Of a DNA stretch of 32,197 nucleotides, positions 3,774 through 29,642 are shown one piece after another (position 1 is the first letter of the stretch; each line of letters begins with the position of its first letter). Under the pieces are notes generated by a model. It saw nothing but the letters and a program-made list of their open reading frames with translations, was not told the DNA's origin and ran no database searches. Made by a program: the position numbers and the translations under genes. The stretch comes from a bacterium (GTDB lineage Bacteria; UBA9089; CG2-30-40-21; SBAY01), in contig JBFMDD010000032.1 in assembly GCA_040754115.1 (NCBI GenBank), positions 1 to 32,197 of the forward strand, given 5' to 3'.

Positions 3774-4994
3774 CTACTTGTCACTTTCTCCTTTAATCAA
3801 TCCATCTTCATACGCCTTCAAAAATGCAGTTGCTACTTCTGAATCAAATTGAGAGCCAGCATGTTCTTTTATCTCATCTAAAGCCCGTTGATGCGGCAAT
3901 CCTTTACGATATGGTCTATCAGAGGTCATAGCATCAAATGTATCTGCTACTGCTAATATTTTACCTCCAATGGATATATCTTTACCTTGTAGTTTATTAG
4001 GATATCCATTTCCATCATATCGTTCATGATGTTGCCAGACACCTGGAACAATAGATTGTAATTGTTTTATTGGTCTAATAATTCCCGCTCCAATCTCAGG
4101 ATGTTTCTTAATTTGCTCAAATTCCTCATCTGTTAACTTTTCAGTTTTTCTAAGAATACTTTCATCAATTCCTATCTTACCAATATCATGAAGTAATCCT
4201 GCCAGTCTAATAGTTTCTTCCTCATCACTACTCAAATTTAATTTTTGAGCGATTGCTTGAGAATATTTCATTACCCGTTCACTATGTCCATGTGTATATG
4301 GGTCTTTTGCTTCAATAGTAGTAACTAAAGCCTTGATGCTGCTAAAGAATAGGTTTTTTAAATCCTCGTACAAGTGTGAATTTTCAATAGCAATTGCCTC
4401 TTGATTAGCCATTGCCTGCAGTAGTTCTAAATCATCTTTAGAGAACCTATCCTCTCCAATTTTATTAATAGCCTCTACTACCCCAATTATTCTGTTTTTA
4501 ATTAATAATGGGACACATAGAATAGATTTGGTTACAAATTTAATTTCCTCATCTATCCTGCGATCTTGAGAAAATCTTGGATCTTTACGAACATCCGCAA
4601 TTGAAATAGGTTGTTTGTTTTTAACTACCCACCCTGCTACCCCTTCACTGATAGGAAATCTAATCCTTTTTATCTCTTCTTTTTTCTCTCCCAGAGCTAC
4701 CTCAAACACAAATTCATTATGCTCCTCATCTATCAACATTAATGAAGATGCCTCTGCTTTTAATAGTTTAGTAGTAAGTTCCATAATTATAGGTAATAAT
4801 TCTTTTATGTGTAGAGTAGAATTAACAATTTGGCTTACTTCAACCAAAGATTCTAAAGTAGCCATCTTTTGACAAATGGCGTTAAAAGATTTATTAAATG
4901 AGTAAAATTTTTCGAGTTCAGTATAATCAAACTTTTTTACAATCTCTTTTTGTAATTCTTCTAATTGTGTTTGTGCTAATTTTAGTTCTTCCAT
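3774..4994 (-). CDS. GAF domain + HD-GYP domain protein (c-di-GMP phosphodiesterase type)
   Basis: HD-GYP motifs are present: HGHSERV, LHDIGKIGI, HHERYDGNGYP. The preceding region of about 150 aa (LMLIDEE..EFVFEVALG..GVAGWV) is GAF-like. The ATG overlaps the stop of the upstream gene by 13 nt. Confidence 0.85.
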   Translation of the reverse strand: MEELKLAQTQLEELQKEIVKKFDYTELEKFYSFNKSFNAICQKMATLESLVEVSQIVNSTLHIKELLPIIMELTTKLLKAEASSLMLIDEEHNEFVFEVALGEKKEEIKRIRFPISEGVAGWVVKNKQPISIADVRKDPRFSQDRRIDEEIKFVTKSILCVPLLIKNRIIGVVEAINKIGEDRFSKDDLELLQAMANQEAIAIENSHLYEDLKNLFFSSIKALVTTIEAKDPYTHGHSERVMKYSQAIAQKLNLSSDEEETIRLAGLLHDIGKIGIDESILRKTEKLTDEEFEQIKKHPEIGAGIIRPIKQLQSIVPGVWQHHERYDGNGYPNKLQGKDISIGGKILAVADTFDAMTSDRPYRKGLPHQRALDEIKEHAGSQFDSEVATAFLKAYEDGLIKGESDK

Positions 4995-7371: not shown

Positions 7372-9633
7372 TTACCTTGTTATCATACCAAGCATTTGTT
7401 TTGCATAACTGTTCTGCGGGTCGACCTTTAAAACTGCCTCAAACTCATGCCTTGCTTTATTAAATATTTGTTGATTGATATAAATAGTGCCTAAGTTATT
7501 ACGGGCAAAAATATTGTTTGAATCTAATTCAATTGCCTTTTTAAATTGAGTTTCTGCCTCTTTATATCTTTTTTGGTCGAAGTAAATTTTACCTAATTTG
7601 TTATAAGAGTCTGGTTTTTGAGGGTTATATGCAATAGCTTTTTTTAAAAGCTCTATTGCTTTATTTATCTGGCCTTTAACTTGATATAATTCACCTAAGA
7701 TTCGTAAGTAATTAGAATCATCTGGAAATATAGCAGAGGCTTGTTCCATTTCTCTAATTGCCTCATCATATTTTCCCTGTCTGACATAAATAGCAGCAAT
7801 ATTATTATGTGGGTCGGCAAATAGTGGTTTATATTTAATTGCATTTTTAGAGGCTTCAATTGACTTGTTAGCACAGCTCTCATCTCCACGAACATATTTC
7901 TCTCCATAAGCAGAACTTAAAAGATTGTAATAATAAGGATGAAGTGGATTACACCTAACTGCTTCCTCTCCTTTGGCAATAAGCATATCTAACCAATACA
8001 TATCTTGAGTTTGATTAAATTTAATATTATATGCATTCAAAATCTCACCATAATAAAATTCTTCACCAGGATTATACTCTAATGCCTTTTCATAACTGGC
8101 AATAGCCTGATCAATATTATTATAATGTACCATTGCTAACCCATTTTTATAGTAAATATCTGCAATATATGGTCGTAAAGATAAAGAAATGAGTTGGTAA
8201 ATTAAAATCAATAAAGGGATACATATTACAATACGAATAATAATATGTACTCTAATGGGTTTAGTCATTTGAGGTTTGGGCATACCGATAGGGATTGCCA
8301 TACCTAATAATAACCAGAATAAAGAAGATGTCCCAATGATTCCAAAGCCAACTTCATTTTGTACAAGATAAGAGATTATAGCGGCTAATACACCAACTAA
8401 TAAAATCTTGTTTTCTTGTTTAATTGAGGAATAATTTTTATATACAAATATAAATAGTAAAATTATAATCCAGAAGTATGCAGCTAATCCTAATAGTCCA
8501 CGAGTTATAGCCATATCTAAGGCTTCCATATGCGCCTTGTCAATCAGGCAATTTCTGCCCCCTTCTGAACGAATAAATTCAATATTTTCATACTTAGTAG
8601 AAACCATCCGTAAGGCATCCGGTCCTACTCCTAAAAAAGGATGTTCTTTTATAATCCGCAGTCCGGTTTGCCAGATATAAACTCTTGTCTCGGCAGTGCT
8701 GGTAAGTCTTATTGTTGGAATAGCTTTCCCTTCCTCTTTCTCTACTGCAATTGTTGATGTAAACTTTTTCACTAAACCCGATTCTCCCTTTAGGAAAAAT
8801 ATTCCAGTAGCAACACTCATAATTACAAAAAGTATTGAAAATCGTAGCTTCATTTTAAGAAATTGTTTCACTAATAGGATGCCAAATAAAAGTATTCCTG
8901 TACCAAGTCCAAGTGCTCCTCCTCGATGAGCAAGTAGAGAAAAGCATTTATAGATTAAGAGAAGACTTATCAAAGAAGTAGCTAAAAAAATAATTTTTTT
9001 TACCATAGTGTGCTTCTTTGAATATGGCAGGAGGAATAGAGTTAAAGGGAGAAAGAAAACCATAGCTAAATAGCCACCTACGAAATTAGGATTGCCAAAA
9101 GTAGAAATTAACCCAGATTCCCATTTGGTTAAATCAATTCCATAGAATTGCAATATTCCACAACCAGCAACTAAGACTCCAGCAAAAGTGATAAAACCAA
9201 TAGTTCTTTTAAGATATTTGCGTTGCCTTAAAAAATTAACCGCAATATAATATATAAAGATATAATTAACAGTGCTAATTAATCCATCGTATCTTTTGTA
9301 TTCGCCTACCAGACTCATATACGGATGTACACCATTTATTGTAGCGGCGATACTTATAATTAAAAAGGCAAGTATCGGGACATCAAGTGGGGTTCTTATG
9401 AACTGAAATTCATTTGTAAATGTAATTTTTAAACACCAAATTCCAAGAATAATAAGTGTCAATACCCGCATAGCAGTTACTTTTGCTAAATCAAAACTGG
9501 TTATATGTGGGTCAAAGAGAAGTGGGATTATTAAAAACATTAAAACCAAAATAACAATAATTACTCTATCGAAATATTCACTAATTTTCTTTGAGTGTTT
9601 TAATAGATTCCTTGAAAGCTTTGATATATTCAT
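7372..9633 (-). CDS. O-antigen ligase (Wzy_C) family polytopic membrane protein with C-terminal TPR repeats
   Basis: Motifs LAHRGGALGLGTG and KAHMEALDMAITRGLLG are Wzy_C-type. It shares the N-terminal motif EFQFIRTPLDVPILAFLIISIAATI with its paralogs, and the C-terminal half is TPR. Confidence 0.8.
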   Translation of the reverse strand: MNISKLSRNLLKHSKKISEYFDRVIIVILVLMFLIIPLLFDPHITSFDLAKVTAMRVLTLIILGIWCLKITFTNEFQFIRTPLDVPILAFLIISIAATINGVHPYMSLVGEYKRYDGLISTVNYIFIYYIAVNFLRQRKYLKRTIGFITFAGVLVAGCGILQFYGIDLTKWESGLISTFGNPNFVGGYLAMVFFLPLTLFLLPYSKKHTMVKKIIFLATSLISLLLIYKCFSLLAHRGGALGLGTGILLFGILLVKQFLKMKLRFSILFVIMSVATGIFFLKGESGLVKKFTSTIAVEKEEGKAIPTIRLTSTAETRVYIWQTGLRIIKEHPFLGVGPDALRMVSTKYENIEFIRSEGGRNCLIDKAHMEALDMAITRGLLGLAAYFWIIILLFIFVYKNYSSIKQENKILLVGVLAAIISYLVQNEVGFGIIGTSSLFWLLLGMAIPIGMPKPQMTKPIRVHIIIRIVICIPLLILIYQLISLSLRPYIADIYYKNGLAMVHYNNIDQAIASYEKALEYNPGEEFYYGEILNAYNIKFNQTQDMYWLDMLIAKGEEAVRCNPLHPYYYNLLSSAYGEKYVRGDESCANKSIEASKNAIKYKPLFADPHNNIAAIYVRQGKYDEAIREMEQASAIFPDDSNYLRILGELYQVKGQINKAIELLKKAIAYNPQKPDSYNKLGKIYFDQKRYKEAETQFKKAIELDSNNIFARNNLGTIYINQQIFNKARHEFEAVLKVDPQNSYAKQMLGMITR

Positions 9634-10008: not shown

Positions 10009-10271
10009 GTAAGCGTTCAGGTGTAAGTAAGGGAAAATGGAAGAGCAGGGAAAAAGGGGAAAAATATTAAAGAATTTGGAACGGTTCACTTTTGTTTGAA
10101 AGTTTGCGGAAAGAAAAGAGAGTTGAAATTCGAAATTAGAAATTAGGGAGAGGACTGAAGACCTAATTTCTAATTTCCAATTTCTAATTTCTGCAAGAAA
10201 TCATAGGAAAAACGATAAAATGAGCCGTCCCTAAATTTCCCATTTTCCCTTCATTACACCTGAACGGTTAC
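10009..10271 (-). mobile_element. MITE-like nested repeat, copy B (inverted relative to copy A)
   Basis: It starts GTAAGCGTTCAGGTGTAAGTAAGGGAAAA and ends TTTTCCCTTCATTACACCTGAACGGTTAC. The inner core spans about 10078-10231, with its heptamer hairpin at 10124-10192 (GAAATTAGAAATTAGG / CCTAATTTCTAATTTC). The element ends 20 nt before the -35 box of the VWA gene promoter. Confidence 0.8.
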
Positions 10272-10339: not shown

Positions 10340-11401
10340 ATGATGAATTTAGATAGATTATTTGCTCAACCAGAATATTTAGTAATATTAGCTGCTGTGC
10401 CTATTTTAATATTATTTTATATAGTTGTGTTTAAGCAGAAAAAGAAAGCATTAGCTAAATTTGGCAATTTAGAACTGATACAAAAAATGTCTCAGTCTGC
10501 AAGCTATAACCGCCAGAAAATAAAGGTTATCCTAATTATACTCACTTTTATTTTATTGATAATTGCGTTATCAAGACCTCAAATAGGGACCAAATTAGGC
10601 ATAATAAAGAGGAAAGGTATTGATATGATTTTAGCTATTGATACTTCTTTTAGTATGATGGCAGAGGATATTAAACCCAATAGATTAGAAAAGGCAAAAC
10701 AGGAGGTAAGCAGATTGATTGATAAATTAAAAGGAGATAGGGTAGGTTTGGTTACCTTTGCAGGTAAAAGTTTTGTTCAATGCCCATTGACTCTTGATTA
10801 CAGTGTGGCTAAAATGTTATTAGATGGGATCGATATAAATACCATTCCTGTTCAAGGCACTGCTATTGGAGATGCAATAAGATGTGCAACTAATGCCTTT
10901 GTTAAAAAAGAACGAAAGCATAAGGTGCTAATTTTACTTACTGACGGAGAAGACCATGACAGCAATCCTATTCAAGCAGCTAAAGAGGCTAAAAAAGAAG
11001 GGGTGAAAATCTATCCTGTTGGGATAGGCTCTACAAAAGGAGAACCCATTCCAATAAAAACTCCAGATGGGCAGATTGAAGAATATAAAAAAGATTCTTC
11101 TGGCGAGATTGTTATGAGTAAATTAGATGAAATTACATTAGAAAAGATTGCACTCATCACTGATGGAAAATACTACCATGTTACCTATGGTGAGATTGAA
11201 TTAGATAAAATATACAAGGATATATCAAAAATGGAAAAAAAGGAACTTCGGACTAAACAATATACTCAATATGAAGATAGATTCCAATATTTCCTAATGG
11301 GAGCATTAATTTTATTGGTATTAGAGATGGCTATAAGTGATAGAAAGAGAGTAAAAAAAGGAAATTTGATAACTGAACGATTAATTGGAGGTCAATGGTG
11401 A
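10340..11401 (+). CDS. von Willebrand factor A domain membrane protein (BatA/BatB-like)
   Basis: The MIDAS motif DMILAIDTSFSM and LLTDGEDH are present. There is an N-terminal TM pair (FAQPEYLVILAAVPILILFYIV) and a C-terminal TM, as in Bacteroides aerotolerance BatA/BatB. The start was moved to ATG 10340, which is in frame and preceded by AAGGAGG. Confidence 0.8.
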   Translation: MMNLDRLFAQPEYLVILAAVPILILFYIVVFKQKKKALAKFGNLELIQKMSQSASYNRQKIKVILIILTFILLIIALSRPQIGTKLGIIKRKGIDMILAIDTSFSMMAEDIKPNRLEKAKQEVSRLIDKLKGDRVGLVTFAGKSFVQCPLTLDYSVAKMLLDGIDINTIPVQGTAIGDAIRCATNAFVKKERKHKVLILLTDGEDHDSNPIQAAKEAKKEGVKIYPVGIGSTKGEPIPIKTPDGQIEEYKKDSSGEIVMSKLDEITLEKIALITDGKYYHVTYGEIELDKIYKDISKMEKKELRTKQYTQYEDRFQYFLMGALILLVLEMAISDRKRVKKGNLITERLIGGQW

Positions 11402-12054
11402 ATAGTTTATGTATTAAGGTATTTATTTTAATTACTTCCTTTCTCTTTATAGGATTTGGGGATAGCCTTACTTCTAAGAACAAGGCTGGAAATAAACTTT
11501 ATGAGCAAGGGAAATATGATGAGGCATTGGCTAAATATCGCGATGCACAACTTGATGAACCTGAATCACAGGAACTATATTTTAATATAGGTGATATTTT
11601 ATATAAAAAGCAAAGGTATGAAGAGGCAATTAAAGAGTATCAAAAGGTACTAACAAGTAAAGATACTCTCCTGCAAGCTAAAACTTATTATAATATTGGT
11701 AATTGTCAATACAGAGCTGGTAAATTAGTCGATGCAATTACCTCTTACAAAAAATCATTAGAGATTAACCCGAATGATTTAGAGGTAAAGTATAATTTAG
11801 AGTTTGTGCGTAAGAAGTTAAAAGAATTAGCACAAAAACAACAAGAGAAAAAACAGTCAGCCCAAGCCGATAAGCAAAAACAAAATGAGGAAAGAAAGAG
11901 AGGGAAACAAGTCCAAAAAGAAAAAGACAAAAAGAAGATGTCTAAAGAAGATGCTAAACGAATATTAGAGGCTTTGGAAGAGGATGAAAAGGATGCTCAA
12001 AAGCGCAAGCAACTACAAATGAGTGGTGCTAAACAGGTAGAAAAAGATTGGTAG
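11395..12054 (+). CDS. TPR repeat protein with Lys/Glu-rich tail (BatC-like)
   Basis: It has a signal/TM N-terminus, three TPR units (ALAKYRDAQLDEP, AIKEYQKVL, AITSYKKSLEINP), and a charged tail (QQEKKQSAQADKQKQNEERKRGKQVQKEKDKKK). The ATG overlaps the VWA stop (ATGGTGA), and GGAGG lies upstream. Confidence 0.75.
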   Translation: MVNSLCIKVFILITSFLFIGFGDSLTSKNKAGNKLYEQGKYDEALAKYRDAQLDEPESQELYFNIGDILYKKQRYEEAIKEYQKVLTSKDTLLQAKTYYNIGNCQYRAGKLVDAITSYKKSLEINPNDLEVKYNLEFVRKKLKELAQKQQEKKQSAQADKQKQNEERKRGKQVQKEKDKKKMSKEDAKRILEALEEDEKDAQKRKQLQMSGAKQVEKDW

Positions 12055-12055
12055 A

Positions 12056-12231
12056 GACGGTTCATTTTATCGTTTTTCCTATGATTTCTCTCGGATATTT
12101 ATTTGTAAGCGTCCACAGAAAATTGAAATTGGAAATTAGAAATTGGGCTTTTACTTCTCTCCCTAATTTCTAATTTCCAATTTCAACTCTCTTTTCTATC
12201 CGCAAGCTTTCAAACAAAAGTGAACCGTCCC
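12056..12231 (+). mobile_element. MITE-like core element, copy C (core only, same orientation as A)
   Basis: The ends are GACGGTTCATTTT (12056-12068) and AAAGTGAACCGTCCC (12217-12231), which are inverted. The hairpin spans 12125-12184, built from GAAATTG/GAAATTA units against TAATTTC/CAATTTC units. The element starts 2 nt after the TAG stop of the TPR gene. Confidence 0.8.
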
Positions 12232-12484: not shown

Positions 12485-12496
12485 TGCGATTTTAGA

Positions 12497-12643
12497 AACG
12501 GCTCACTTTAGCGTGAAAGCTTGCGGTTAAAAAATGGATATGAAATTAGAAATTGGGGAAAGAGGTGAAGACCTAATTTCCAATTTCTAATTTCTAATTT
12601 CCAAAGGAAATCACAGGGAAAAACGATGAAAATAAACCGTCCC
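12497..12643 (-). mobile_element. MITE-like core element, copy D (core only, inverted relative to C)
   Basis: It runs AACGGCTCACTTT ... AAATAAACCGTCCC. The hairpin spans 12542-12602 (GAAATTAGAAATTGGGG / CCTAATTTCCAATTTCTAATTTCTAATTTCC). The flank GCGGTTAAAAAATGGATA (12523-12540) recurs at 32169-32185. Confidence 0.75.
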
Positions 12644-17460: not shown

Positions 17461-17481
17461 AAGGTATTATCTCCCTTTAAT

Positions 17482-17528
17482 TTGGTAATTGGTAACTGGT
17501 TACCATTTAACCAATTACCAGTTACCAA
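17482..17528. repeat. Heptamer-built hairpin (GGTAATT/GGTAACT units) between yidD and yidC
   Basis: TTGGTAATTGGTAACTGGTTA (17482-17502) faces TAACCAATTACCAGTTACCAA (17508-17528). This gives 21 positions with one T.G and one C.A mispair, and the loop is CCATT. Alternative registers are possible because the arms are 7-nt repeats. Confidence 0.8.
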
Positions 17529-18434: not shown

Positions 18435-20945
18435 CTATCTGGTCATAGAATCTACTACTTGTCTAAGTCCCGTATCCTCTGGGTGATATCTTAGATACAG
18501 TTCAAATTCACTTTTTGCTTTATAATATAAAGTAGCATCTTCATTTATTTGTCCTTTTGTTCTTTTACTTTCTGCTGCTCTAAAATAAGCAGCACCTAAG
18601 TCACGGCGGACATTTATATTTTTAGGGTCTATTTTAACTATTTCTTCAAATGCCTTTGAAGATTCATCATATTTGCCTTGTGAAAAGTATATCTCGCCTA
18701 ATCTATGATGAGCATTAATTAGGTCTGGCTCAACTGCAAGGGCTTTTTTTAGCCAATTAATTGCCTCATTATAGTCTCCCTTCTTAAAATAAATATCACC
18801 TATGGTTACTTTGCATTGTCCATCATTTGGTCTCATCTTTGCTACCTTTTTATACTCTGCAATAGCATTATCATACTCGTTATCTTTAGAATATAATGCT
18901 CCTAAGTTATTAAGTGGTTCTGCAAAGATAATATTATATTTTAATGCTGCATGATATGCCTCAATAGCCTTTTGTTTAGCTGTTTTAGAACCTACATCGT
19001 ACTCCAATGCATAAGTAGCTCCTAAAATATTATAAAAATAGCCATCTTTCGGATTAACCTTAAAGGCATCTTTTATACGATTAAATGTCTTACGAATCCA
19101 TTCCTTTTTTAGTTCTATTTGAGTCATGGGGATAGAAGCAGCTTTCTTATAATAGGTATATGTCAACTCACCGTAATAGTGTCTTTCTCTAAAATTGCGG
19201 TGTACTGCCTCTTCATACATCTTTAAAGCTGTATCTAAGTCTTGGTCATGAATTGCTTTTTCGCCTTTATTAAAGTAGTAATCTGCTCGATAGGGGAAAA
19301 GAGAAAGGTAACCTAATAAGCAAACTACTACAACGACTAAAGTAGCTAAACCAGTTTGAATAGGTGTAAGTCGAATGTAAAGAGAAGGCTTTTTATGTAT
19401 ATCAGGTTCTATTTTCTGAGGTGTAAGCCTGGTATAACCACAAACTACCATTGTCATACCCATTAAAGTCCAGTAAAAAGGAGTAAAAGAGACAACTGCA
19501 AAGGCAAATTGATTTTGCACTATATACGCTGTCCAGCCAGATAGAAATCCAGCTATTAGTAATTTATCTTTTTCTACTGGGGCACGAAGGTACCCTCTAA
19601 TAGCCAGATAAATAAAAGCACCTAATAACCAAAGATAGATTGCCAACCCTCCTAAACCTCTTGTAACAGCCATGTCAAATACTTCATTATGAGCTCTATC
19701 GTAGTCAACATTATATCCTTCTAATTTCTCCATACCAGGTAGTTCATAAAGAGGATATACCCACTTCATAGTATCTACTCCTACCCCAAATAATAACCCA
19801 CAATAAGGGAAAGTCAGTGGGCCACGAATTGGTCCATCTTGAGGATAATGAGCAATAATTATAGCCGAATTCCGCCATATAAAGTATCGAGAGCCAAGTG
19901 CTCCTATAAGTTTATTTATCAACCAATTTTTTTTAGGCTGAGTAGATTCTGAAATTTCCTCTTCCCCAGTAATCACCTTCTGAAGGATTTCTCCCTTTTC
20001 TTCTTTAGCTGACTTGATAACATTAACCATTCGTTCTGCTACTGAACCCGGTTGAAGGCAAAGATAACCTGTAAATATTAAAAATGTTAAACTAAATACC
20101 ATAGCCCTCTTTCGAGTATAAATAAATGCCTTTTTAGTCCACAGAGTAGCAAATAGAATTATGCCTGCTAATAAACCTGCCAGAGGCCCACGGCTTTTTG
20201 CTAAGAATAAAGATGCGTACATAGTAATTAAAGCTATTCCAAATAACCAACTCTTTATTGTCTCCTCTCTACCTTTATGAATAAGCTTTTTATTCTTTGC
20301 CTTTTTCTTTGGAATAACTTTCTGCAGAATATCTTCCTTTATAAAGAAATATCCTATTGTTACCGGGATAATTGTAGCTAAGTATGCACCCAAAAATATA
20401 GGGTTACCAAATGTAGCCACAGCCCTTTCCTGGACATCCGCAGCCCAGGATATAGGGTCAAGACCTGCTCTTTGAACAAATGTGTAAAAAGAAGCTATGA
20501 ATCCAACTCCTATTCCTACATAAGCTGTTAGATTAAGTAATTTGCGATTATTATGTAAGAAATTAGTTGCAGTAAAAAATAGCAGTACATAACAAATAGT
20601 TGTGGTTAACCCTTCATGCCTTTTATAAGCACCAACTATACTTGTAAATGGGTCAACTGAGAATATTGTCGAGACAATGCTGACTAAAAGAAAGGCTAAA
20701 ACAGGTAAGTCCAATTTACTACGCACAAATTTAAATTCATTGGTTAAAATTATTCGCAAAAGCCATGCACCTATTATAACTAATGAAAATAGGCGCAATA
20801 AAGTCACCTTCGGAATGTCAAATACACCTCTACAGTGGGTGTCAAAGTAAAGCGGAACAACAAGAAGTAATCCTAAAAAAGCCCATTCAACTACTTTAGT
20901 ACAAATATCTTCTATCTTCTTCTTATTCATTTTTTCCAACTCCAT
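18435..20945 (-). CDS. O-antigen ligase (Wzy_C) family polytopic membrane protein with C-terminal TPR repeats
   Basis: Motifs LAKSRGPLAGLLAG and RAHNEVFDMAVTRGLGG are Wzy_C-type. The N-terminal EFKFVRSKLDLPVLAFLLVSIVSTI is shared with the two paralogs at 4982-9633, and the C-terminal roughly 280 aa are TPR. No SD precedes ATG 20945. Confidence 0.8.
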   Translation of the reverse strand: MELEKMNKKKIEDICTKVVEWAFLGLLLVVPLYFDTHCRGVFDIPKVTLLRLFSLVIIGAWLLRIILTNEFKFVRSKLDLPVLAFLLVSIVSTIFSVDPFTSIVGAYKRHEGLTTTICYVLLFFTATNFLHNNRKLLNLTAYVGIGVGFIASFYTFVQRAGLDPISWAADVQERAVATFGNPIFLGAYLATIIPVTIGYFFIKEDILQKVIPKKKAKNKKLIHKGREETIKSWLFGIALITMYASLFLAKSRGPLAGLLAGIILFATLWTKKAFIYTRKRAMVFSLTFLIFTGYLCLQPGSVAERMVNVIKSAKEEKGEILQKVITGEEEISESTQPKKNWLINKLIGALGSRYFIWRNSAIIIAHYPQDGPIRGPLTFPYCGLLFGVGVDTMKWVYPLYELPGMEKLEGYNVDYDRAHNEVFDMAVTRGLGGLAIYLWLLGAFIYLAIRGYLRAPVEKDKLLIAGFLSGWTAYIVQNQFAFAVVSFTPFYWTLMGMTMVVCGYTRLTPQKIEPDIHKKPSLYIRLTPIQTGLATLVVVVVCLLGYLSLFPYRADYYFNKGEKAIHDQDLDTALKMYEEAVHRNFRERHYYGELTYTYYKKAASIPMTQIELKKEWIRKTFNRIKDAFKVNPKDGYFYNILGATYALEYDVGSKTAKQKAIEAYHAALKYNIIFAEPLNNLGALYSKDNEYDNAIAEYKKVAKMRPNDGQCKVTIGDIYFKKGDYNEAINWLKKALAVEPDLINAHHRLGEIYFSQGKYDESSKAFEEIVKIDPKNINVRRDLGAAYFRAAESKRTKGQINEDATLYYKAKSEFELYLRYHPEDTGLRQVVDSMTR

Positions 20946-20953
20946 TTATTTAG

Positions 20954-20999
20954 TGATTGGTGACTGGTAATTGGTTAAATAGTTACCAGTTACCAATCA
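20954..20999. repeat. Heptamer-built hairpin (GGTGACT/GGTAACT units) overlapping the GH57 stop codon
   Basis: TGATTGGTGACTGGTAA (20954-20970) pairs with TTACCAGTTACCAATCA (20983-20999), giving 17 bp with one G.T. The loop is 12 nt. The TGA stop of GH57 is 20999-20997. The hairpin ends 8 nt upstream of ATG 20945. Confidence 0.85.
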
Positions 21000-23503: not shown

Positions 23504-23552
23504 CTAATTTTCTGCTCTCCCGCCTAAAAATTAATTGGTAAATAATTTTTGT

Positions 23553-23581
23553 TTGACAAATTAAAATTGATTTAGTATACT
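23553..23581 (+). promoter_or_regulatory. Sigma70-type promoter TTGACA-17-TATACT, 10 nt upstream of ATG 23592 (leaderless-type)
   Basis: TTGACA is at 23553-23558, followed by the 17-nt spacer aattaaaattgatttag, TATACT at 23576-23581, tcttattact, then ATG. There is no SD. Confidence 0.6.
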
Positions 23582-23591
23582 TCTTATTACT

Positions 23592-26024
23592 ATGATGATT
23601 AATGAAATTATGAGTTGTTTTTTGCCTGGAATTATTACTATCCTGTTTATCTTGTTACTTATATTTTACAAGGAAATTGTCCATGTAATTGAACAATGGA
23701 TTAATAAATTTACACAATGGTTTTCGATTAATGTGTTAAAATCGTATGATAAAAGTCTTAACCAGTACCTTAAAACTCTTACATCTCAATTACAAGAGGA
23801 TATTATCGCTTGTAGAGTTTTGGGTGAAAAAATAGACTTAGAAAAAAGCTATATCAGTCTTAAATTAAAAAATAAGGAATATCCTGCTATCAAAATTAGT
23901 GAACAAAAGGAGTATGAAGTTGAAGAAATTTTAAAAAAGGAACAGGAATTTGGAAACATACTGATGCTAATTGGTAAATCAGGCTCAGGTAAAACTACCA
24001 TCCTTAAACACTTAGCTTATACAGTTAGCTTAGGAAAGGGTATTCGCCACATTCCTGTATTTATCACTATTACACAATGGGTAGAAAAGAATTTAAGTTT
24101 AGTGGACTATATTTTTCATATTATCTCTAAAAATGGCTTTCAAGGAACGCTCAAATTTATAGAAAATAAACTTTCAGCAGGAAAATTCTTAATACTGCTG
24201 GATGGATTTGATGAGGAATTTAAAAAACAAAAAGAAATAATAGAGCAAATTGAAACCTTTGCTAATCACCCAAGATATAAAAAGAACAAAATTATAGTTA
24301 CCTCAAAGCCTATTCTTGATACTATTGAACTTGCTAATTTCAAGCAATTTGAGATATTAGAGTTAAACAATAGACAACAAAGATTATTTCTTGAGAGTAA
24401 AATTGGTAAAGAAAGTGATTTTGACTTTGATAGATGTAGAGAATTAATTGTAGCTATTGAACAAGATAGTAAAGTTGAACATTTAGCTCGAAATCCACTC
24501 CTGCTTACTTTTATCTATCATATCTTTAAACATAATTTGGAATTACCCAAAAGGTGTGTAGATATTTATGAGCTATGTACTAACCTGATGATAAAGAGAG
24601 ATAAAGAGCTACAAATTGATATATTAAAAAATGTAGCATATCATTACCATCTTAATCGAGTTATAGAACTTGATATAAAATCATTATTAAAGATAATCGA
24701 GGAAAGTATATCTGATTTTACTTCACTTTCATTACTTAAAGACTTTGAAAGTAATGGTATTATCCGTAAAAAGACTTATACTACCTACGAGTTTATCCAC
24801 CTTACCTTTCAAGAGTATTTAGTAGCTGCCTATATCAACGATAATAGAAAAGATAGAGAAAAGATTTTATTTGAGAATATAGGAGATTACTGGTGGGAAG
24901 GAGTTATACTACTTTATGCAGGGATGAGTGGTGATGCCAGTAGCTTTATTAAGAAGGTGCTAAAGAGCAATGCAGAAATTACAAGTAAATGTTTGCTTGA
25001 GGTGGAAACTTTAAATAATGATGTACGGGATGAAGTTTTGAAGAAATTGATAGAAACCTCTGATGGTGCGGATAAAGAGCTATTTGATAAGATATTTGAA
25101 TCATTATCAAATGGAGATATTAATTCTGTACTTATTCAAGGATTACAAACCACTACAGATAGAGAATTACGATATCGGATTGTCAAACTTTTGGCAAATA
25201 GATTTAAAAAAGGAAGTAAGGAATTAGTTGATGTTATGAAACAAGTATTTGAGAAAGATACCTATGGAAATACACTTTATTTTGCTATGCAAATCTTAGA
25301 GAAAATTGACACCCCTGAAGCAACAGCAATAATTAACTCATTTAAAGGTAGTGGTAAATCCAGTGTATCAACACAGATGGCATTGATACCAGCAGGTAGA
25401 TTTTTGATGGGCAGTCGCAAAAATGAAGGTTTTGAATCAGAACACCCTATTCATGAGATTCACTTAGACATATTTTATATGGATAAGACATCAGTAACTA
25501 ATGCTGAATATGAAAAATTTGATCCTGGCCATGAAAGATGTTGGGAGGATGAAGGAGATAATCATCCAGTAGTTAATATTTCATGGTATGAAGCTTACAT
25601 GTACGCACTGTGGTCTGGAAAACGGCTACCAACTGAGGCAGAATGGGAAAAGGGAGCGCGAGGAACAGATGGACGCAGGTATCCATGGGAAAATATGTTT
25701 GACGCTAAAAAATGTAATACAAGTGAAAGTAAAATTGGTAAAACAACACCTGTAAGAAAATATAGTAGTATTGGAGAAAGCCCTTATGGGTGTTTGGATA
25801 TGGTTGGTAATGTATTGGAATGGTGTGAAGATTGGTATGATGAAAATTATTATACCAACACTACAGATAGAAATCCCACAGGACCAGAAAAAGGAATTTT
25901 TCGAGTATTGCGTGGTGGGGCGTGGAACCTTGACAAGAATAGTGCAAGATGTGCCTGTCGTTTGAATGCATATCCAGATTATAGAAGCAACTGTGTAGGA
26001 TTCCGCTGTGTTAGAACTCCTTAA
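23592..26024 (+). CDS. Membrane-anchored STAND NTPase: N-terminal TM helix, NACHT module, HEAT-like repeats, C-terminal FGE-sulfatase (SUMF1/C-type-lectin fold) domain
   Basis: The TM helix is SCFLPGIITILFILLLIFY (aa 8-26). Walker A GKSGSGKTT is aa 128-136 (nt 23973-23999) and Walker B LILLDGFDE is aa 200-208. The NACHT-type ARNPLLL is near aa 299-305. The helical-repeat region spans aa ~455-585. The FGE fold spans aa ~596-809: MALIPAGRFLMGS, HPVVNISWYEAYMYALW, RLPTEAEWEKGARG, YPWEN, GNVLEWCEDWY, RVLRGGAW, GFRCV. Confidence 0.85.
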   Translation: MMINEIMSCFLPGIITILFILLLIFYKEIVHVIEQWINKFTQWFSINVLKSYDKSLNQYLKTLTSQLQEDIIACRVLGEKIDLEKSYISLKLKNKEYPAIKISEQKEYEVEEILKKEQEFGNILMLIGKSGSGKTTILKHLAYTVSLGKGIRHIPVFITITQWVEKNLSLVDYIFHIISKNGFQGTLKFIENKLSAGKFLILLDGFDEEFKKQKEIIEQIETFANHPRYKKNKIIVTSKPILDTIELANFKQFEILELNNRQQRLFLESKIGKESDFDFDRCRELIVAIEQDSKVEHLARNPLLLTFIYHIFKHNLELPKRCVDIYELCTNLMIKRDKELQIDILKNVAYHYHLNRVIELDIKSLLKIIEESISDFTSLSLLKDFESNGIIRKKTYTTYEFIHLTFQEYLVAAYINDNRKDREKILFENIGDYWWEGVILLYAGMSGDASSFIKKVLKSNAEITSKCLLEVETLNNDVRDEVLKKLIETSDGADKELFDKIFESLSNGDINSVLIQGLQTTTDRELRYRIVKLLANRFKKGSKELVDVMKQVFEKDTYGNTLYFAMQILEKIDTPEATAIINSFKGSGKSSVSTQMALIPAGRFLMGSRKNEGFESEHPIHEIHLDIFYMDKTSVTNAEYEKFDPGHERCWEDEGDNHPVVNISWYEAYMYALWSGKRLPTEAEWEKGARGTDGRRYPWENMFDAKKCNTSESKIGKTTPVRKYSSIGESPYGCLDMVGNVLEWCEDWYDENYYTNTTDRNPTGPEKGIFRVLRGGAWNLDKNSARCACRLNAYPDYRSNCVGFRCVRTP

Positions 26025-26036
26025 TTCGGCTTGTAT

Positions 26037-26062
26037 TTAACCGTACAGGTCGAATTTTTTGC
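26037..26062 (+). repeat. Short dispersed module TTAACCRTACAGGTCGAAYTTTTGC (copy 1)
   Basis: TTAACCGTACAGGTCGAATTTTTTGC at 26037-26062 matches TTAACCATACAGGTCGAACTTTTGC at 32035-32059. A diverged relative shares TTTTGCACGAAAT around 9893-9940. Confidence 0.65.
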
Positions 26063-26170
26063 TTGATCGTATAGTAATAAAATTAGAGTAGAGATTTTAA
26101 TCTCTATTTTTAGAGGATAAATCCTCTACTCTATTAAAGTTATCAAGCGAAGCGAGATTTTTTGCTTGAC
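26053..26170. repeat. Nested inverted repeats flanked by the direct repeat ATTTTTTGCTTGA
   Basis: The direct repeat occurs at 26053-26066 (aattttttgcttga) and 26156-26169 (gattttttgcttga). Inverted pairs are GCTTGAT/ATCAAGC (26061-26067 / 26142-26148), TAGAGTAGAG/CTCTACTCTA (26084-26093 / 26124-26133), AGAGAT-TTTA-ATCTCT (26090-26105) and AGAGGAT-AA-ATCCTCT (26112-26127). Confidence 0.75.
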
Positions 26171-26206
26171 AGGAGAGGGAATTTATGATAAAAATATATT
26201 AAATTT

Positions 26207-26283
26207 TGGAGTGTGAAAGCTTTAGGCTTTTAGCCAGAAATATTGCTTTTGAAGTAAAAGCTGTGGCAAGCCACCGTACTCCA
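26207..26283 (+). other. Multi-hairpin module closed by TGGAGT/ACTCCA
   Basis: The outer pair is TGGAGT (26207-26212) with ACTCCA (26278-26283). Inner hairpins are GGCT-TTT-AGCC (26225-26235), GCTTTT-GAAGT-AAAAGC (26245-26261) and GTGGC-AA-GCCAC (26263-26274). Confidence 0.55.
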
Positions 26284-26303
26284 TACATCCCAAAATTGAT
26301 ATT

Positions 26304-26352
26304 GGAGTGACAGCACTTGTGCTGTCAATGACACCACAAGTGGTGTCACTCC
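26304..26352 (+). promoter_or_regulatory. Twin 18-bp inverted repeats enclosed by GGAGTGA/TCACTCC, ending 28 nt upstream of the FliO-like ATG (operator- or RNA-structure-like)
   Basis: The twin repeats are GACAGCAC-TT-GTGCTGTC (26309-26326) and GACACCAC-AA-GTGGTGTC (26330-26347), separated by AAT. The outer pair is GGAGTGA (26304-26310) with TCACTCC (26346-26352). Function is unknown. Confidence 0.45.
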
Positions 26353-26380
26353 TCATTTCCCTGTCCAAGAGAGAATTAGT

Positions 26381-26980
26381 ATGTTAAAAAGAAGTTTTAT
26401 CTTTAGCATATGTGTAGTAATAAGTTTTTGTGTTGTGACATGTATTGAATCAAAAATATGTTATGGGATAAAAGCAAAAGTCGAACAAAGTAGTGAGGAT
26501 ATTGCTTTAGGAGAAGATGGAAAAGAAGAACTTGCAGGTGGAAAATATAATATTAACCTGTTTGTTCTGATTATAAAGGCTATCTTCTCACTCATAATTA
26601 TTACTGTACTCATCTATTTTATCCTTCGTTTCTTTCTGAAAGGACAGAGATGGATTACCAAACAATCAGGACTTATCCAAATTATCGCTACTCATCCTTT
26701 AGCCCCTAATAAATATATCCAGATAGTAGAAATTGGTAATAAGTTATTAGTTTTAGGTGTGAGCGAACATAACATTAATTTATTGACTGAAATTGTAGAT
26801 AAAGAAGTAATAGATTTTATTAAAATACAATCTTCTAAACAAGAAGATAAAATGCAACTATCCTTTATCCAACATCTAAAAAATAAACTTCGTGTCCAAG
26901 AAATACAACAAACAGACTATGACGAAAAGCTAAAATTTTTAAATAAACAAAGAGAAAGATTAAGAAAATTAGAAGCATAG
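26381..26980 (+). CDS. FliO/FliZ-like flagellar export-apparatus accessory protein
   Basis: The architecture and core resemble Bacillus FliZ/FliO as I recall them: a signal-like N-terminus, a central TM (FVLIIKAIFSLIIITVLIYFIL), then LIQIIATHPLAPNKYIQIVEIGNKLLVLGVSEHNINLLTEI (compare ..VQLIKVGKSVLVVGVGE.IQLLKEI). The match is from memory and is not a scored alignment. Confidence 0.6.
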   Translation: MLKRSFIFSICVVISFCVVTCIESKICYGIKAKVEQSSEDIALGEDGKEELAGGKYNINLFVLIIKAIFSLIIITVLIYFILRFFLKGQRWITKQSGLIQIIATHPLAPNKYIQIVEIGNKLLVLGVSEHNINLLTEIVDKEVIDFIKIQSSKQEDKMQLSFIQHLKNKLRVQEIQQTDYDEKLKFLNKQRERLRKLEA

Positions 26981-26998
26981 AGCCAAAAGGAGGATAAA

Positions 26999-28774
26999 GT
27001 GGACTACTTTGACTCAAATATGACACTATTAACAAAAAGAGAGCCTCAATTAGTTAAGCGATTGGAAGGAGTAACTCCATCTCCGGATGTTAACCTTGCC
27101 TCTTTACCAACTACCCCTATAATTGATCCTAATATGAGTTTAAATCATATCAATACATTAGTAGTGTTAGGTTTTGGAGTGGGAACTCATGTAAGAGAGC
27201 TGGCAGAAAGAGTTCAAAAGAAAACACTTTTACTGGTAATCGATCCTGATATAGCTACTTTCAAGGCATTACTTAAAATAATAGATTTAACTCCTATTTT
27301 ACAATCACCCAATGTTAAACTTGCAATTGGAGAGTCTGCCACCCATGCTGTGCGATATCGAATAGATGATTACTATAAAGTAAATACTGTTCCTGATATA
27401 ACCATTGCAGAACACAAATGGTCTGTTAAAAAGAATCCCGAGTATTATGAGAAAATAAAGGAATTATTGGAGGAGTCAAGTATTATTGGCCGTCAAAATT
27501 TAGCTACACTTATGGAAAGTGCTTCCCTATGGCAAAATCAGATTCTAACCAATATATCTATTATTATAAAATGTCCTGGTCTAAAAGCATTGTTTGGTAG
27601 ATTTCCAAATATCCCTACAATTATAGTTGGAGCAGGTCCTTCTCTTGATAAAAATGTTGCTTATTTAAAAGATGCTAAAGATAAGGCATTAATTATATGT
27701 GTAGATACAGCGTTAAGAACTCTATTTAATAATAATATTAAACCAGATTTGGTGGTAACTATTGATGCTACTGCAAAAAATTATAATTATTATTTAAAAG
27801 ACCTTGATTTATCAGATATATATTTAATTGCAGGCCCTGCAGTTTACCCGCAGACTATGTTATCCTTCGCCCCAAAGATATTTGTAAGTAGTTTTGGACA
27901 TCCATTATTAGATTGGATTGAGACATTTATAGGGACGAAAGGAACTATTAAACTTGGTGGCTCTGTTTCAACCGCTGCATTTGATTTGGCTCGAAGATGT
28001 GGTGCTAACCCTATTGTATTTATCGGTCAGGATTTAGCATTTACAGATGATAAAGTATATACCTCTGGAGTGAAAAAGGAACGAATAAAAGAGGTAGAAG
28101 AGGTAATGCCAAAAGCTGATATTATCTGGGTAGAGGATATTTATGGTGGTAAAGTGAAGACTGTACGGGGTATATGGACATGGATTAAATGGTTTGAACA
28201 TCAAATAAGTGAAATACCACATGTTCTTTGTATTGATGCTACTGAGGGAGGTGCTAAAATACAGGGAACTAAAATCATGACATTAAAAGGGGTGATTGAA
28301 AATTATTGCCAAAAATATATTAATATTAGCCAGATTTTACATGATGCAACTAAACATTATGTTTTATCTGATATGACTAACCTATTGCGAGAAATGGAGG
28401 TATTAATAAAAGATTGGAGAAAGGTACAATTTATTGGGAAAGAAGGGGCAATACTGGCAAATAAACTACTCGAAATAATAGCAGATAACCAGATAAATAA
28501 AAGAGCTAAAAAGATATTTAAAGAACTGGGTGTTCTATATCAACGGATAATTGAAAATCACAAAGGACTACTAAGACTCGGTAGTTGGAACTTAGAACCG
28601 TTATTATTTAAAATGGAGAAGTATCATTTAAGTAATGACCCAAATATGAGAGTTAGAGCATGTAAAAGCTTCTTTGAAGAAATATCAACCTATTGTCAAG
28701 ATTCTGTTGCATCACTACAATCAGTCCATAAGAAATTATTAGAGATAGAAGAGGAAAGAAAAAAGTATTTTTAA
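26999..28774 (+). CDS. Motility-accessory-factor (Maf) type DUF115 / MptE-like glycosyltransferase
   Basis: The DUF115 core is PTIIVGAGPSLDKN ... LIICVDTALRTL ... PDLVVTIDA ... GGSVSTAAFDLA ... IVFIGQDLAF. The size (591 aa) is typical of Maf flagellin glycosyltransferases. A GTG start follows the SD AAGGAGG. Confidence 0.7.
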   Translation: MDYFDSNMTLLTKREPQLVKRLEGVTPSPDVNLASLPTTPIIDPNMSLNHINTLVVLGFGVGTHVRELAERVQKKTLLLVIDPDIATFKALLKIIDLTPILQSPNVKLAIGESATHAVRYRIDDYYKVNTVPDITIAEHKWSVKKNPEYYEKIKELLEESSIIGRQNLATLMESASLWQNQILTNISIIIKCPGLKALFGRFPNIPTIIVGAGPSLDKNVAYLKDAKDKALIICVDTALRTLFNNNIKPDLVVTIDATAKNYNYYLKDLDLSDIYLIAGPAVYPQTMLSFAPKIFVSSFGHPLLDWIETFIGTKGTIKLGGSVSTAAFDLARRCGANPIVFIGQDLAFTDDKVYTSGVKKERIKEVEEVMPKADIIWVEDIYGGKVKTVRGIWTWIKWFEHQISEIPHVLCIDATEGGAKIQGTKIMTLKGVIENYCQKYINISQILHDATKHYVLSDMTNLLREMEVLIKDWRKVQFIGKEGAILANKLLEIIADNQINKRAKKIFKELGVLYQRIIENHKGLLRLGSWNLEPLLFKMEKYHLSNDPNMRVRACKSFFEEISTYCQDSVASLQSVHKKLLEIEEERKKYF

Positions 28775-28778
28775 TGAA

Positions 28779-29642
28779 ATGATTGAAAAAAATGATTGTT
28801 TACTTTGTAAATTTAAAGATTATAAGATAATTAAAGCAATAAATGAGTATAATTTTAAAGAGTGTAAAAATTGTGGGCTAATTTATCTTGACCATCAGCC
28901 AGATGAAGGTGCATTAAAGGAACTTTATCCAGAGAAATATTTCCATTCACAACATCCAGAAGGTTATCATGATGTTATTGTTCGCAAAGATGATGTCATC
29001 AATTATAGACTAAAAGCCATTGTGGACTTAATAAACAATCTAAGTCCTAATAAAGGAAGATTACTTGAGGTTGGTTGTGCAGTAGGATATTTTTTAGAAT
29101 TAGCTCAGGCTTCAGGTTGGGAGGCTCAAGGTGTAGAATTATCCCCATGGGCGTCACAATATGCTCGGGAAAAGACAAAAGTTCAGGTGGCAACAGGAAA
29201 ACTTGAGGAGGTTAGATTTCCAGACGCATATTTTGATGCAATAGTAATGATAGAATTAATAGAACATACTCAAAATCCAAACATCTTTTTAAAAGAGGTC
29301 TATAGAATATTAAAACCTGATGGTATGATTCTTATTACCACACCTAATTCAAAAAGTATTCATGGTAAAATTTGGAAGAGAACATTTCAAGAAACTTTCT
29401 TAATTCCAGAACATCTGTTTTTATTCTCAATACCCACTATTAAACGAATATTAGAATTGATTAATTTTAGAATAATACATCTACAAACAAAAACATATCT
29501 AAGACGATATTATGATTACAAAGTTCCTAATGGATTATTACGACAAATAAGGAAATTAGGTAGAAAGCTAATGCTAAGATTAATTAACAGCTTAAATTCA
29601 GGAGAGATGTTACTTGTGGTAGCTAAGAAGTCAGTAAGGTGA
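28779..29642 (+). CDS. Class I SAM-dependent methyltransferase with N-terminal CxxC..CxxC zinc ribbon
   Basis: The zinc ribbon is CLLCKF..(x17)..CKNCGLIY. SAM motif I is LLEVGCAVGYFLE, and the post-I/II regions are GVELSP and DAIVMIELIEH. Confidence 0.8.
   Translation: MIEKNDCLLCKFKDYKIIKAINEYNFKECKNCGLIYLDHQPDEGALKELYPEKYFHSQHPEGYHDVIVRKDDVINYRLKAIVDLINNLSPNKGRLLEVGCAVGYFLELAQASGWEAQGVELSPWASQYAREKTKVQVATGKLEEVRFPDAYFDAIVMIELIEHTQNPNIFLKEVYRILKPDGMILITTPNSKSIHGKIWKRTFQETFLIPEHLFLFSIPTIKRILELINFRIIHLQTKTYLRRYYDYKVPNGLLRQIRKLGRKLMLRLINSLNSGEMLLVVAKKSVR

Follow-up and report, generated by a model that had tools for sequence, protein, structure and literature searches.

A gene on contig JBFMDD010000032.1 (GenBank assembly GCA_040754115.1) raises the question of how a bacterial protein built like a NOD-like receptor (NLR) could produce an output when no enzyme stands at its N-terminus. 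Positions 1 to 32,197 of the contig were analysed, hereafter referred to as the window; the gene (open reading frame 23592..26024 on the plus strand in the window's listing) encodes 810 amino acids. A reading made from the letters of the window, without database searches (the sequence-only reading), had described the product as a membrane-anchored STAND NTPase with one N-terminal transmembrane (TM) helix, a NACHT module, HEAT-like repeats, an FGE-sulfatase fold (FGE, formylglycine-generating enzyme) at the C-terminus and no recognisable effector domain, and had connected it with immunity systems of the Avs/bNACHT type. We find this domain anatomy, with the Walker A, Walker B and winged-helix histidine motifs intact, the FGE active site dead and a TM helix at the position where relatives carry effectors. 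The account that we tentatively favour is that of a single-gene, NLR-like switch of the STAND NTPase-FGS class (FGS being the FGE-sulfatase domain), which would be tethered to the inner membrane and would signal when its TM and juxtamembrane helices cluster.

Relatives of the protein were gathered in a search of 5.8 billion clusters, which gave 1,429 matches at E ≤ 1e-10; the family counts below come from the 120 best of these. Pfam NACHT (PF05729) matched with 31.3 bits against a gathering cutoff of 26.7, and the relatives scored 32–58 bits. The motifs quoted in the sequence-only reading, GKSGSGKTT with K134, LILLDGFDE and ARNPLLL, are all in their places. K134 is conserved in 117 of the 120 relatives, D204 in 118, D207 and E208 likewise in 117–118, P302 in every one and the winged-helix H403 in 117. 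An AlphaFold2 model built from a 120-sequence alignment (mean predicted local distance difference test, pLDDT, 89; predicted template-modelling score, pTM, 0.78) consists of the TM helix (residues 3–24), a helix (26–73), an α/β NTPase core with helical and winged-helix domains up to about residue 430, an arm (431–590) and an FGE fold (596–810). Foldseek comparison of the first ~600 residues with the PDB gave NLRC4 (4kxf), NLRP3 (8swk and 7alv) and NOD2 (5irn) at E-values of 3e-14 to 1e-12, in alignments of 550–630 columns and with a probability of 1.00. When the NACHT half was compared with PDB sequences as a single sequence, only P-loop noise came back, and the clade profile reached NLRC4 and NLRP3 weakly (E ~1e-4), so that Pfam, motifs and fold jointly carry the class assignment. 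By these the protein is an NLR-like STAND NTPase of the NACHT clade, as had been supposed. The HEAT-like repeats survive as modelled structure, but the HEAT_2 match at residues 513–580 stays below its Pfam threshold (cutoff 27.7; 20.5 bits over the full protein, 24.5 bits when the segment is taken alone), so the term rests on modelled helical repeats and not on a significant repeat match.

The C-terminal FGE-sulfatase fold is confirmed independently of the full-length Pfam match. FGE sequences of the PDB align at an E-value of 6e-36 with ~30–33% identity (2q17, 6muj, 6s07, 1y1e), and Foldseek finds FGE structures at E ~1e-16 with a template-modelling score of ~0.67 on the target. Where the FGE structures of S. 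coelicolor and T. curvata have the catalytic segment GGSYLCHDSYCNRYR, this protein aligns with GGAWNLDK---NSAR; by alignment to 6muj, 2q17 and 6s07 the first catalytic cysteine is replaced by leucine and the second is deleted. The C-x4-C pattern occurs in this loop in none of 115 aligned relatives, and no sulfatase gene was found among the 21 annotated genes of the window. Since the cysteine pair is absent and no sulfatase is a neighbour, the domain is predicted to be a binding module and not an enzyme, which agrees with the sequence-only reading, where the missing pair had been noticed. Family-wide, the FGE domain has the lowest mean entropy of all modules (1.83 bits, compared to 2.1–2.5 for the others), with its most variable windows in the last ~25 residues. 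This pattern fits a conserved scaffold with variable C-terminal binding loops, by analogy with other C-type-lectin-fold binders.

The N-terminus was searched for an effector. Residues 1–125 gave no significant match to Pfam at E ≤ 10, and no adaptor-like domain was detectable there. The sole match listed, BK_channel_a (E = 0.023), lies below threshold, with 15.4 bits where 26.8 are required, and is attributable to the TM helix; a cryptic effector in this segment was rejected. The claims of a single N-terminal TM helix and of no recognisable effector domain thus stand, while the "about 100 residues of coiled or unknown sequence" behind the TM helix have to be redescribed. They comprise a predicted amphipathic juxtamembrane helix, its continuation to residue 73, and a pre-P-loop part of the NACHT module itself, in which E79, Y87 and I88 are invariant in the alignment (A1) and the consensus is kept across the 120 relatives. 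The spacing between the TM helix and the conserved NACHT N-terminal helix is only ~25 residues. With residues 27–73 in one helix and residues 74–120 belonging to NACHT, there appears therefore to be no room for an independent effector domain on the N-terminal side.

The TM helix is preceded by a 7-residue acidic tail and directly followed by Lys27, and an N-out/C-in topology is therefore predicted. This is the sole orientation that would put the ATPase in the cytoplasm, and the lectin-fold sensor would lie there with it. Seven close relatives (P0002–P0008, 56–75% identity) share the one-TM architecture and keep the helix; one homologue at 56% identity is labelled Nitrospirota. A sister clade of 34–36% identity, which includes Poribacteria, retains the anchor, but ahead of the homologous helix it has a further hydrophobic segment at the N-terminus and a linker of low complexity. 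The helix is also homologous to the one that stands directly before NACHT in P0009–P0015; where these proteins have two hydrophobic segments, the second is the counterpart of residues 8–26.

In the wider family the region before Walker A falls into at least 10 unrelated sequence clusters. It holds a Metallophos domain in 13 of the 120 relatives, a DUF4062/TIR-like domain in 18, a ParA-like domain in 2 and an unassigned soluble module of ~150 residues in 41; ~35 proteins, in at least 8 unrelated clusters, have nothing but 1–3 TM helices there. Within the Metallophos, DUF4062 and ParA clusters a TM helix was predicted only for P0078, grouped with the DUF4062 cluster, and none of the TM-type clusters contains a recognised enzymatic domain. 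TM helices and enzymes being exclusive in this slot (P0078 aside), TM modules appear positionally equivalent to enzymatic effectors, and the TM helix of our protein is therefore placed in the effector position. The other end of the architecture varies as well, some TM-NACHT relatives ending in WD40 or other C-termini instead of FGE. An exhaustive phmmer scan of 1.84 billion representatives returned 13,243 clusters at E ≤ 1e-30 (179,117 at E ≤ 1e-3), and the FGE-fold domain was responsible for the majority of these matches. The whole one-TM clade forms one 50%-identity cluster and is therefore rare and lineage-restricted. GTDB species representatives yielded FGE-domain matches only and no close full-length relative. 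In viral contigs matches were FGE-only or NACHT-only, with no full-length relative, and a phage-borne origin was rejected.

We propose the following course of events. The protein would be inserted in the inner membrane N-out/C-in, and its cytoplasmic FGS domain would bind a macromolecular ligand through the variable C-terminal loops, the likeliest ligand being a conserved invader (phage) protein or a glycoconjugate. Binding would lift autoinhibition, upon which NACHT would swap ADP for ATP and oligomerise; an ATP-state switch with oligomerisation is established for characterised Avs and NLR proteins. The output would be a forced clustering of the TM helix and of the amphipathic juxtamembrane helix, rich in Trp and Phe, in the inner membrane, a proposal made because no enzymatic effector or adaptor is present. 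Clustering might perturb the membrane or make it leak ions and thereby lead to growth arrest, an outcome of the abortive-infection type. In a more specific form, which we regard as possible but doubtful, the protein's own TM and amphipathic helices would be its only output and ligand-driven oligomerisation would assemble them into a membrane-perforating or ion-conducting bundle; the protein would then be a prokaryotic counterpart of the plant coiled-coil NLR (CC-NLR) resistosome, with a non-repeat FGE-fold sensor, encoded in a conserved, relocating leaderless cassette.

The expression signals and the surroundings of orthologues bear on this proposal. The ATG at 23592 lies 10 nucleotides downstream of the −10 box, no Shine-Dalgarno sequence was found upstream of it, and position 23553, where the sequence-only reading had let the element begin, is the first base of the −35 box. 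Carrying both a strong promoter and a terminator-like hairpin of its own, the gene forms a transcription unit complete in itself. The promoter block (42 nucleotides including the spacer) recurs upstream of the orthologues at three loci, L001, L002 and L084, with 41/42, 38/40 and 40/42 identical positions (95–98%), while the coding sequences there are only 77–82% identical and L002 has a different upstream gene. The block is present in one copy in the window and was found only at these loci; a metagenome scan for the conserved promoter gave no match. At three of the four loci the ATG follows the block by 8–10 nucleotides, and the leaderless arrangement is therefore conserved; at L001 there is a 30-nucleotide leader with AAGGA. 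The leaderless promoter thus holds up, and the gene appears to travel with it.

Neighbourhoods of homologues are diverse. In the genome of P0002 surE lies upstream, as in the window, with TPR and NYN genes downstream; P0004 is found with mraZ and the dcw cluster, P0005 with PocR-GAF-HD, P0007 and P0008 with PmbA/TldD, P0013 with a dehydrogenase and DHDPS and with a PIN toxin near, and P0014 in a tandem array of three NACHT/FGE paralogues beside a BrnT toxin. Contexts differ even among 71–75% identical orthologues (surE, mraZ, PocR-GAF-HD), so that homologues are not kept in one fixed housekeeping setting, and no partner gene is conserved across 8 loci. Neither of two findings that the sequence-only reading had named as refuting it, homologues always in one housekeeping context or intact FGE cysteines next to a sulfatase, has thus turned up. 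We count these varying neighbourhoods, the lack of a conserved partner, the paralogue array with BrnT and a promoter that seems to move with its gene as suggestive of a conflict system. The array (locus L087, positions 716–10724 of contig ena:ERZ25072076 ctg244199) comprises an FGE protein of 695 residues, an NNH1-NACHT-leucine-rich-repeat-FGE protein of 1256 residues and the TM-NACHT-FGE protein P0014, whose FGE domain is shortened by a 1-nucleotide frameshift relative to a 91%-identical paralogue.

Several observations weigh against a membrane-tethered immune switch. PADLOC found no Avs/bNACHT model match on the protein, only PDC-S60 (27.8 bits, E 1.7e-7) and generic P-loop matches, and for ten neighbours in the window it reported no defence match beyond generic HD and methyltransferase ones. 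There is no defence island around the locus in the window. Of the immune role suggested by the sequence-only reading there is left what family membership allows one to infer, and its Avs/bNACHT type found no match. The TM helix is uniformly hydrophobic, without an obvious pore-lining polar face, and may be a simple anchor. The sensor-1 arginine (TSRP), present in 113 of the 120 relatives, is a lysine in 6, which are the gene's own protein and its five closest relatives (P0001–P0006); the change is conservative and lineage-specific and could alter the handling of ATP or other nucleotides. Between the window and the P0002 genome SurE is 84% identical and the NACHT-FGE protein at the same position 75%, indicating that the nearest orthologue is syntenic and has been inherited vertically at a moderately faster rate than SurE. 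In the close clade the FGE domain is, at 79% identity, the best-conserved part of the protein, with only 67% at residues 774–806; together with the synteny this fits a conserved, possibly endogenous ligand as well as a conserved phage pattern. Finally, it is explicitly stated in PMC10907252 that there is no experimental characterisation for FGS-sensor STANDs, and our literature search found no functional study of such a protein later than that paper.

The plainly hydrophobic helix with no polar face would suit a protein in which it is only an anchor, so that the oligomerised sensor recruits or activates an effector encoded elsewhere, or sequesters its ligand. The extra segment of the sister clade, possibly a signal peptide, and its linker look like a constitutive type-I anchor. 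In PMC8195603, many STAND-FGS proteins are described as recruiting effectors in trans through adaptor domains, the effector-associated domains (EADs), and for the TM/NACHT/C-type lectin (CLec) targets of the diversity-generating retroelement (DGR) DGR-3 a neighbouring peptidase was suggested as effector by Dore 2024 (PMC10907252). An arrangement of this kind nevertheless seems unlikely here, given that the 8 loci share no neighbour, that residues 1–125 contain nothing adaptor-like, and that TM modules and enzymatic effectors, P0078 aside, exclude each other in the N-terminal slot.

A lineage-specific housekeeping or regulatory STAND switch, which at the inner membrane would sense a ligand of the cell's own, for instance an intermediate of envelope or glycan synthesis, would account for a further set of observations, several of them counted above against the immune switch. 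Housekeeping genes surround the gene and no defence gene adjoins it, a related genome shows the synteny with surE again and a divergence of the same order as that of SurE, its sensor is the best-conserved part of the protein and its promoter is strongly conserved. The window is also rich in envelope-glycan genes (Wzy_C-TPR, TMEM260-like, Maf-like), and a 2026 STAND survey in Nature counts only 198 out of 589 STAND clades among those associated with defence (PMC13581612). Against such a role speak the patchy distribution of the gene, the shifts of context among 71–75% identical orthologues, the confinement of the one-TM clade to a single rare 50% cluster, and a family in which effectors are swapped (Metallophos, TIR-like) and paralogues stand in arrays, as is typical of conflict systems; PMC8195603 independently assigns the family to such systems. 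We consider a non-immune role quite unlikely.

NACHT proteins often have FGS/CLec domains that DGRs target (PMC10907252, PMC7159879), TvpA, itself a DGR target, is matched by the family profile at E 7e-32, and the last ~25 residues are the most variable of the domain, so that the protein might be an adaptive "antigen receptor" with a hypermutated FGS C-terminus. A template repeat of the gene's 3′ end was found neither in a window-wide repeat search nor at six other single-gene homologue loci (sensitive blastn with the last 260 nucleotides, 8 loci), and the window contains no reverse-transcriptase open reading frame. The only similar 3′ ends are those of L087, where differences fall mostly on third codon positions and are not adenine-specific, as expected of ordinary paralogue divergence and not of DGR activity. 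Judged from the window and these loci, a DGR target is very improbable, though a DGR may lie elsewhere in the genome. That the protein is a real formylglycine-generating enzyme, or an oxidase akin to one, fused to an ATPase, as its strong FGE-sulfatase matches in Pfam and the PDB and the source annotation of homologues as "SUMF1/EgtB/PvdO family nonheme iron enzyme" (an NCBI name) might suggest, was rejected as next to impossible, both catalytic cysteines being gone here and in 115 of 115 relatives, the NCBIfam enzyme equivalogs (EgtB, SenA, PvdO, GldK) scoring far under their cutoffs (EgtB 101 against 360 bits) and no sulfatase being encoded in the window.

Features of the TM-NACHT-FGE locus, with positions in the window and residues of the 810-residue protein
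Feature	Position	Strand	Basis or remark
Promoter block	23541..23583	+	−35 TTGACA 23553-23558, 17-nt spacer, −10 TATACT 23576-23581; 11/12 consensus match
Coding sequence, TM-NACHT-helical repeat-FGE fold protein	23592..26024	+	leaderless-type start
N-terminal TM helix, residues 8-26, SCFLPGIITILFILLLIFY	23613..23669	+	mean Kyte-Doolittle hydropathy 2.5; AlphaFold2 helix 3-24
Juxtamembrane amphipathic helix, residues 27-44 (Trp/Phe-rich), running on as one long helix to residue 73	23670..23810	+	hydrophobic moment 2.06 (residues 27-44); AlphaFold2 helix 26-73, pLDDT 85-95
Pre-P-loop segment of NACHT module, residues 74-123	23811..23960	+	family-conserved LGEKxDLExxYIxL
NACHT nucleotide-binding domain, residues 124-241	23961..24314	+	Pfam NACHT
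Walker A GKSGSGKTT, residues 128-136 (K134)	23973-23999	+	motif search
Walker B LILLDGFDE, residues 200-208	24189-24215	+	motif search
Sensor-1 position VTSKP, residues 236-240	24297-24311	+	Lys239 replaces the family's Arg
Helical domain 1 and winged-helix part	24315..24881	+	motifs, Foldseek alignment
ARNPLLL, residues 299-305	24486-24506	+	motif search
Conserved His motif FIHLTFQEYLVAAY, residues 401-414	24792-24833	+	FIHLTFQEYL at residues 401-410
Helical-repeat arm, residues 431-590, helical domain 2 (HD2)-like and HEAT-like, joins NACHT to sensor	24882..25361	+	AlphaFold2 all-helical, pLDDT 58-87
FGE-sulfatase/C-type-lectin-fold (FGS) domain, residues 594-808, predicted ligand sensor	25371..26015	+	Pfam 195.5 bits, full-length
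Degenerate catalytic loop RGGAWNLDKNSARCACR	25911-25961	+	alignment to FGE structures
Terminator-like hairpin and T-run	26023..26056	+	overlaps stop codon

The immediate surroundings are those of a chromosomal housekeeping region (rnpA-yidC-jag-mnmE) with a GC content of ~33%. The host is an uncultivated low-GC bacterium: at 77–89% identity its MnmE has relatives only in metagenome-assembled genomes, and the closest named ones, Ca. Desantisbacteria, NPL-UPA2 and Firmicutes, stand at ~50–55%. A divergent surE adjoins the gene on its upstream side, as the sequence-only reading had stated; the downstream block contains FliO-like, Maf/MptE-like, methyltransferase, plsY and gpsA genes, for which "flagellar-type cluster" was an only partly apt name. 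In 26381-29642 a FliO-like gene standing alone (PF04347, 55 bits) precedes a homologue of the Maf/MptE-like motility accessory factor and an S-adenosylmethionine-dependent methyltransferase, and neither fliPQR nor other flagellar export genes were found elsewhere in the window. No conserved small open reading frame flanks the gene in the list of those of at least 25 residues.

The 356-bp intergenic region downstream of the gene (26025-26380) has features of its own. It contains a promoter-like TTGACA at 26166, followed by an 18-nucleotide spacer and AAAAAT. RNA from 26200-26380 has a folding energy of −63.3 kcal/mol, compared to −39.2 kcal/mol for shuffles (z = −6.3), and its fold is dominated by a near-perfect 49-nucleotide hairpin at 26304-26352. 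Rfam matched no family in the window or in this region, which the L001 orthologue lacks on its downstream side. Either a structured 5′ leader belonging to the FliO-like operon or a palindromic repeat element may account for it.

Other repeats were noted in the window. An intergenic repeat of ~160 nucleotides is present in two copies (2830-2990 and 12064-12231, 91–94% identity, 9.2 kb apart), one after a TMEM260-like/TPR gene and the other after the TPR gene 11395-12054; it could be a mobile or regulatory element. A 113-nucleotide direct repeat of 72% identity, located at 10075-10187 upstream of a BatA/VWA gene and at 12492-12604 upstream of a SLOG (LDcluster4) gene, may be a shared regulatory region. 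Related AT-rich palindromes (…GGTAATTGGTAACTGGTTACC…) lie just downstream of yidC (17474-17528) and of the Wzy_C-TPR gene 18435-20945 (20942-20996) and are probably terminators or elements of the repetitive extragenic palindrome type. Four large paralogous membrane proteins of 750–840 residues (157-2586, 4982-7357, 7372-9633 and 18435-20945) have an O-antigen-ligase-like domain (Wzy_C) or an O-mannosyltransferase domain of the TMEM260-like kind, followed by TPR arrays at the C-terminus; their shared internal repeats reflect paralogy, and together they concentrate envelope-glycosylation genes here to an unusual degree.

Few of the sensor types reported on bacterial STAND/NLR proteins are as widespread as the FGS/C-type-lectin fold, and the copy studied here is a minimal case, with one gene and one TM helix and with no enzyme, DGR or partner found. 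If active, it would offer a clean system for learning what a non-hypermutated FGS sensor recognises and whether a bare TM helix can be an NLR output. If inactive, or if it has a housekeeping function, it would stand for a branch of the NACHT-FGS family that is not immune.

The architecture as such is known. STAND NTPase-FGS conflict systems were described by Kaur 2021 (eLife; PMC8195603), where effectors (TIR, DRHyd, calcineurin, peptidases, kinases) or EADs occupy the N-terminus and FGS is proposed to bind invader molecules directly. Kibby 2022 (bioRxiv 10.1101/2022.07.19.500537) distinguishes two "antigen receptor-type" C-termini among bacterial NACHT proteins, FGS being one of them, FGE-sulfatase sensors are shown in the 2026 Nature STAND survey (PMC13581612), and Dore 2024 (PNAS; PMC10907252) reported NACHT-CLec DGR targets that have TM segments and whose N-terminal extensions are uncharacterised. 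Variable N-termini on NACHT-FGS proteins, some of them DGR targets with TM segments, are thus already in the literature, and the novelty implied by the sequence-only reading was too high. Particular to this copy are the TM-only N-terminus, the absence of a visible DGR or partner, the sensor-1 lysine and the conserved leaderless cassette.

With the STAND NTPase-FGS class our protein shares the order of an N-terminal variable module, a NACHT NTPase and a single C-terminal FGS (PF03781). Relatives carry calcineurin-like and TIR-like modules, N-terminal modules are swapped among the 120 relatives, and FGS is non-catalytic in this gene's family. It departs from the descriptions consulted, which give enzymatic effectors and EADs and no TM-only N-terminus, in having one TM and one juxtamembrane helix. 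DGR association (frequent there, though not obligatory), an EAD partner and a paralogue are not seen in the window, and the host is not a cyanobacterium or another known multicellular bacterium. The targets of DGR 3 in Thiohalocapsa PB-PSB1 (PMC10907252) are similar in their central NACHT, their C-terminal CLec/FGE-type domain and their N-terminal extension without a characterised domain, and in that predicted TM segments set whether the sensor faces cytoplasm or periplasm. Unlike those targets, which are duplicated and hypervariable and lie beside a reverse transcriptase and a template repeat, the gene studied here is single, has neither element nearby, and its FGE domain is the best-conserved part.

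With Avs1-5, Avs7, bNACHT01 and others the protein shares the tripartite single-gene NLR logic of effector position, STAND NTPase and C-terminal sensor. The characterised Avs/bNACHT proteins differ from it in having TPR-like or short sensors and nuclease, protease, SIR2 or TIR effectors, and neither their PADLOC models nor their defence-island context is matched here. The likeness to FGE (SUMF1/FGE; 2q17, 6muj, 6s07, 1y1e) extends over the fold of the whole domain, but the copper-binding cysteine pair is gone, no sulfatase substrate gene lies nearby and here the domain forms part of a fusion with an NLR-type ATPase.

Plant CC-NLR resistosomes such as ZAR1, and bacterial defence effectors that consist of TM segments only, deliver their output at the membrane through short N-terminal helices or TM segments and not through an enzyme. 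To these our protein bears a functional analogy only: there is no relationship in N-terminal sequence or fold, and the helix here is predicted to be constitutively inserted. A likeness of this kind is also seen to Tmn, described in PMC13001434 as a transmembrane P-loop NTPase defence protein of the YobI family that acts by Mg2+ export; Tmn is not a NACHT protein, and what the two would have in common is an NTPase switch with a membrane output.

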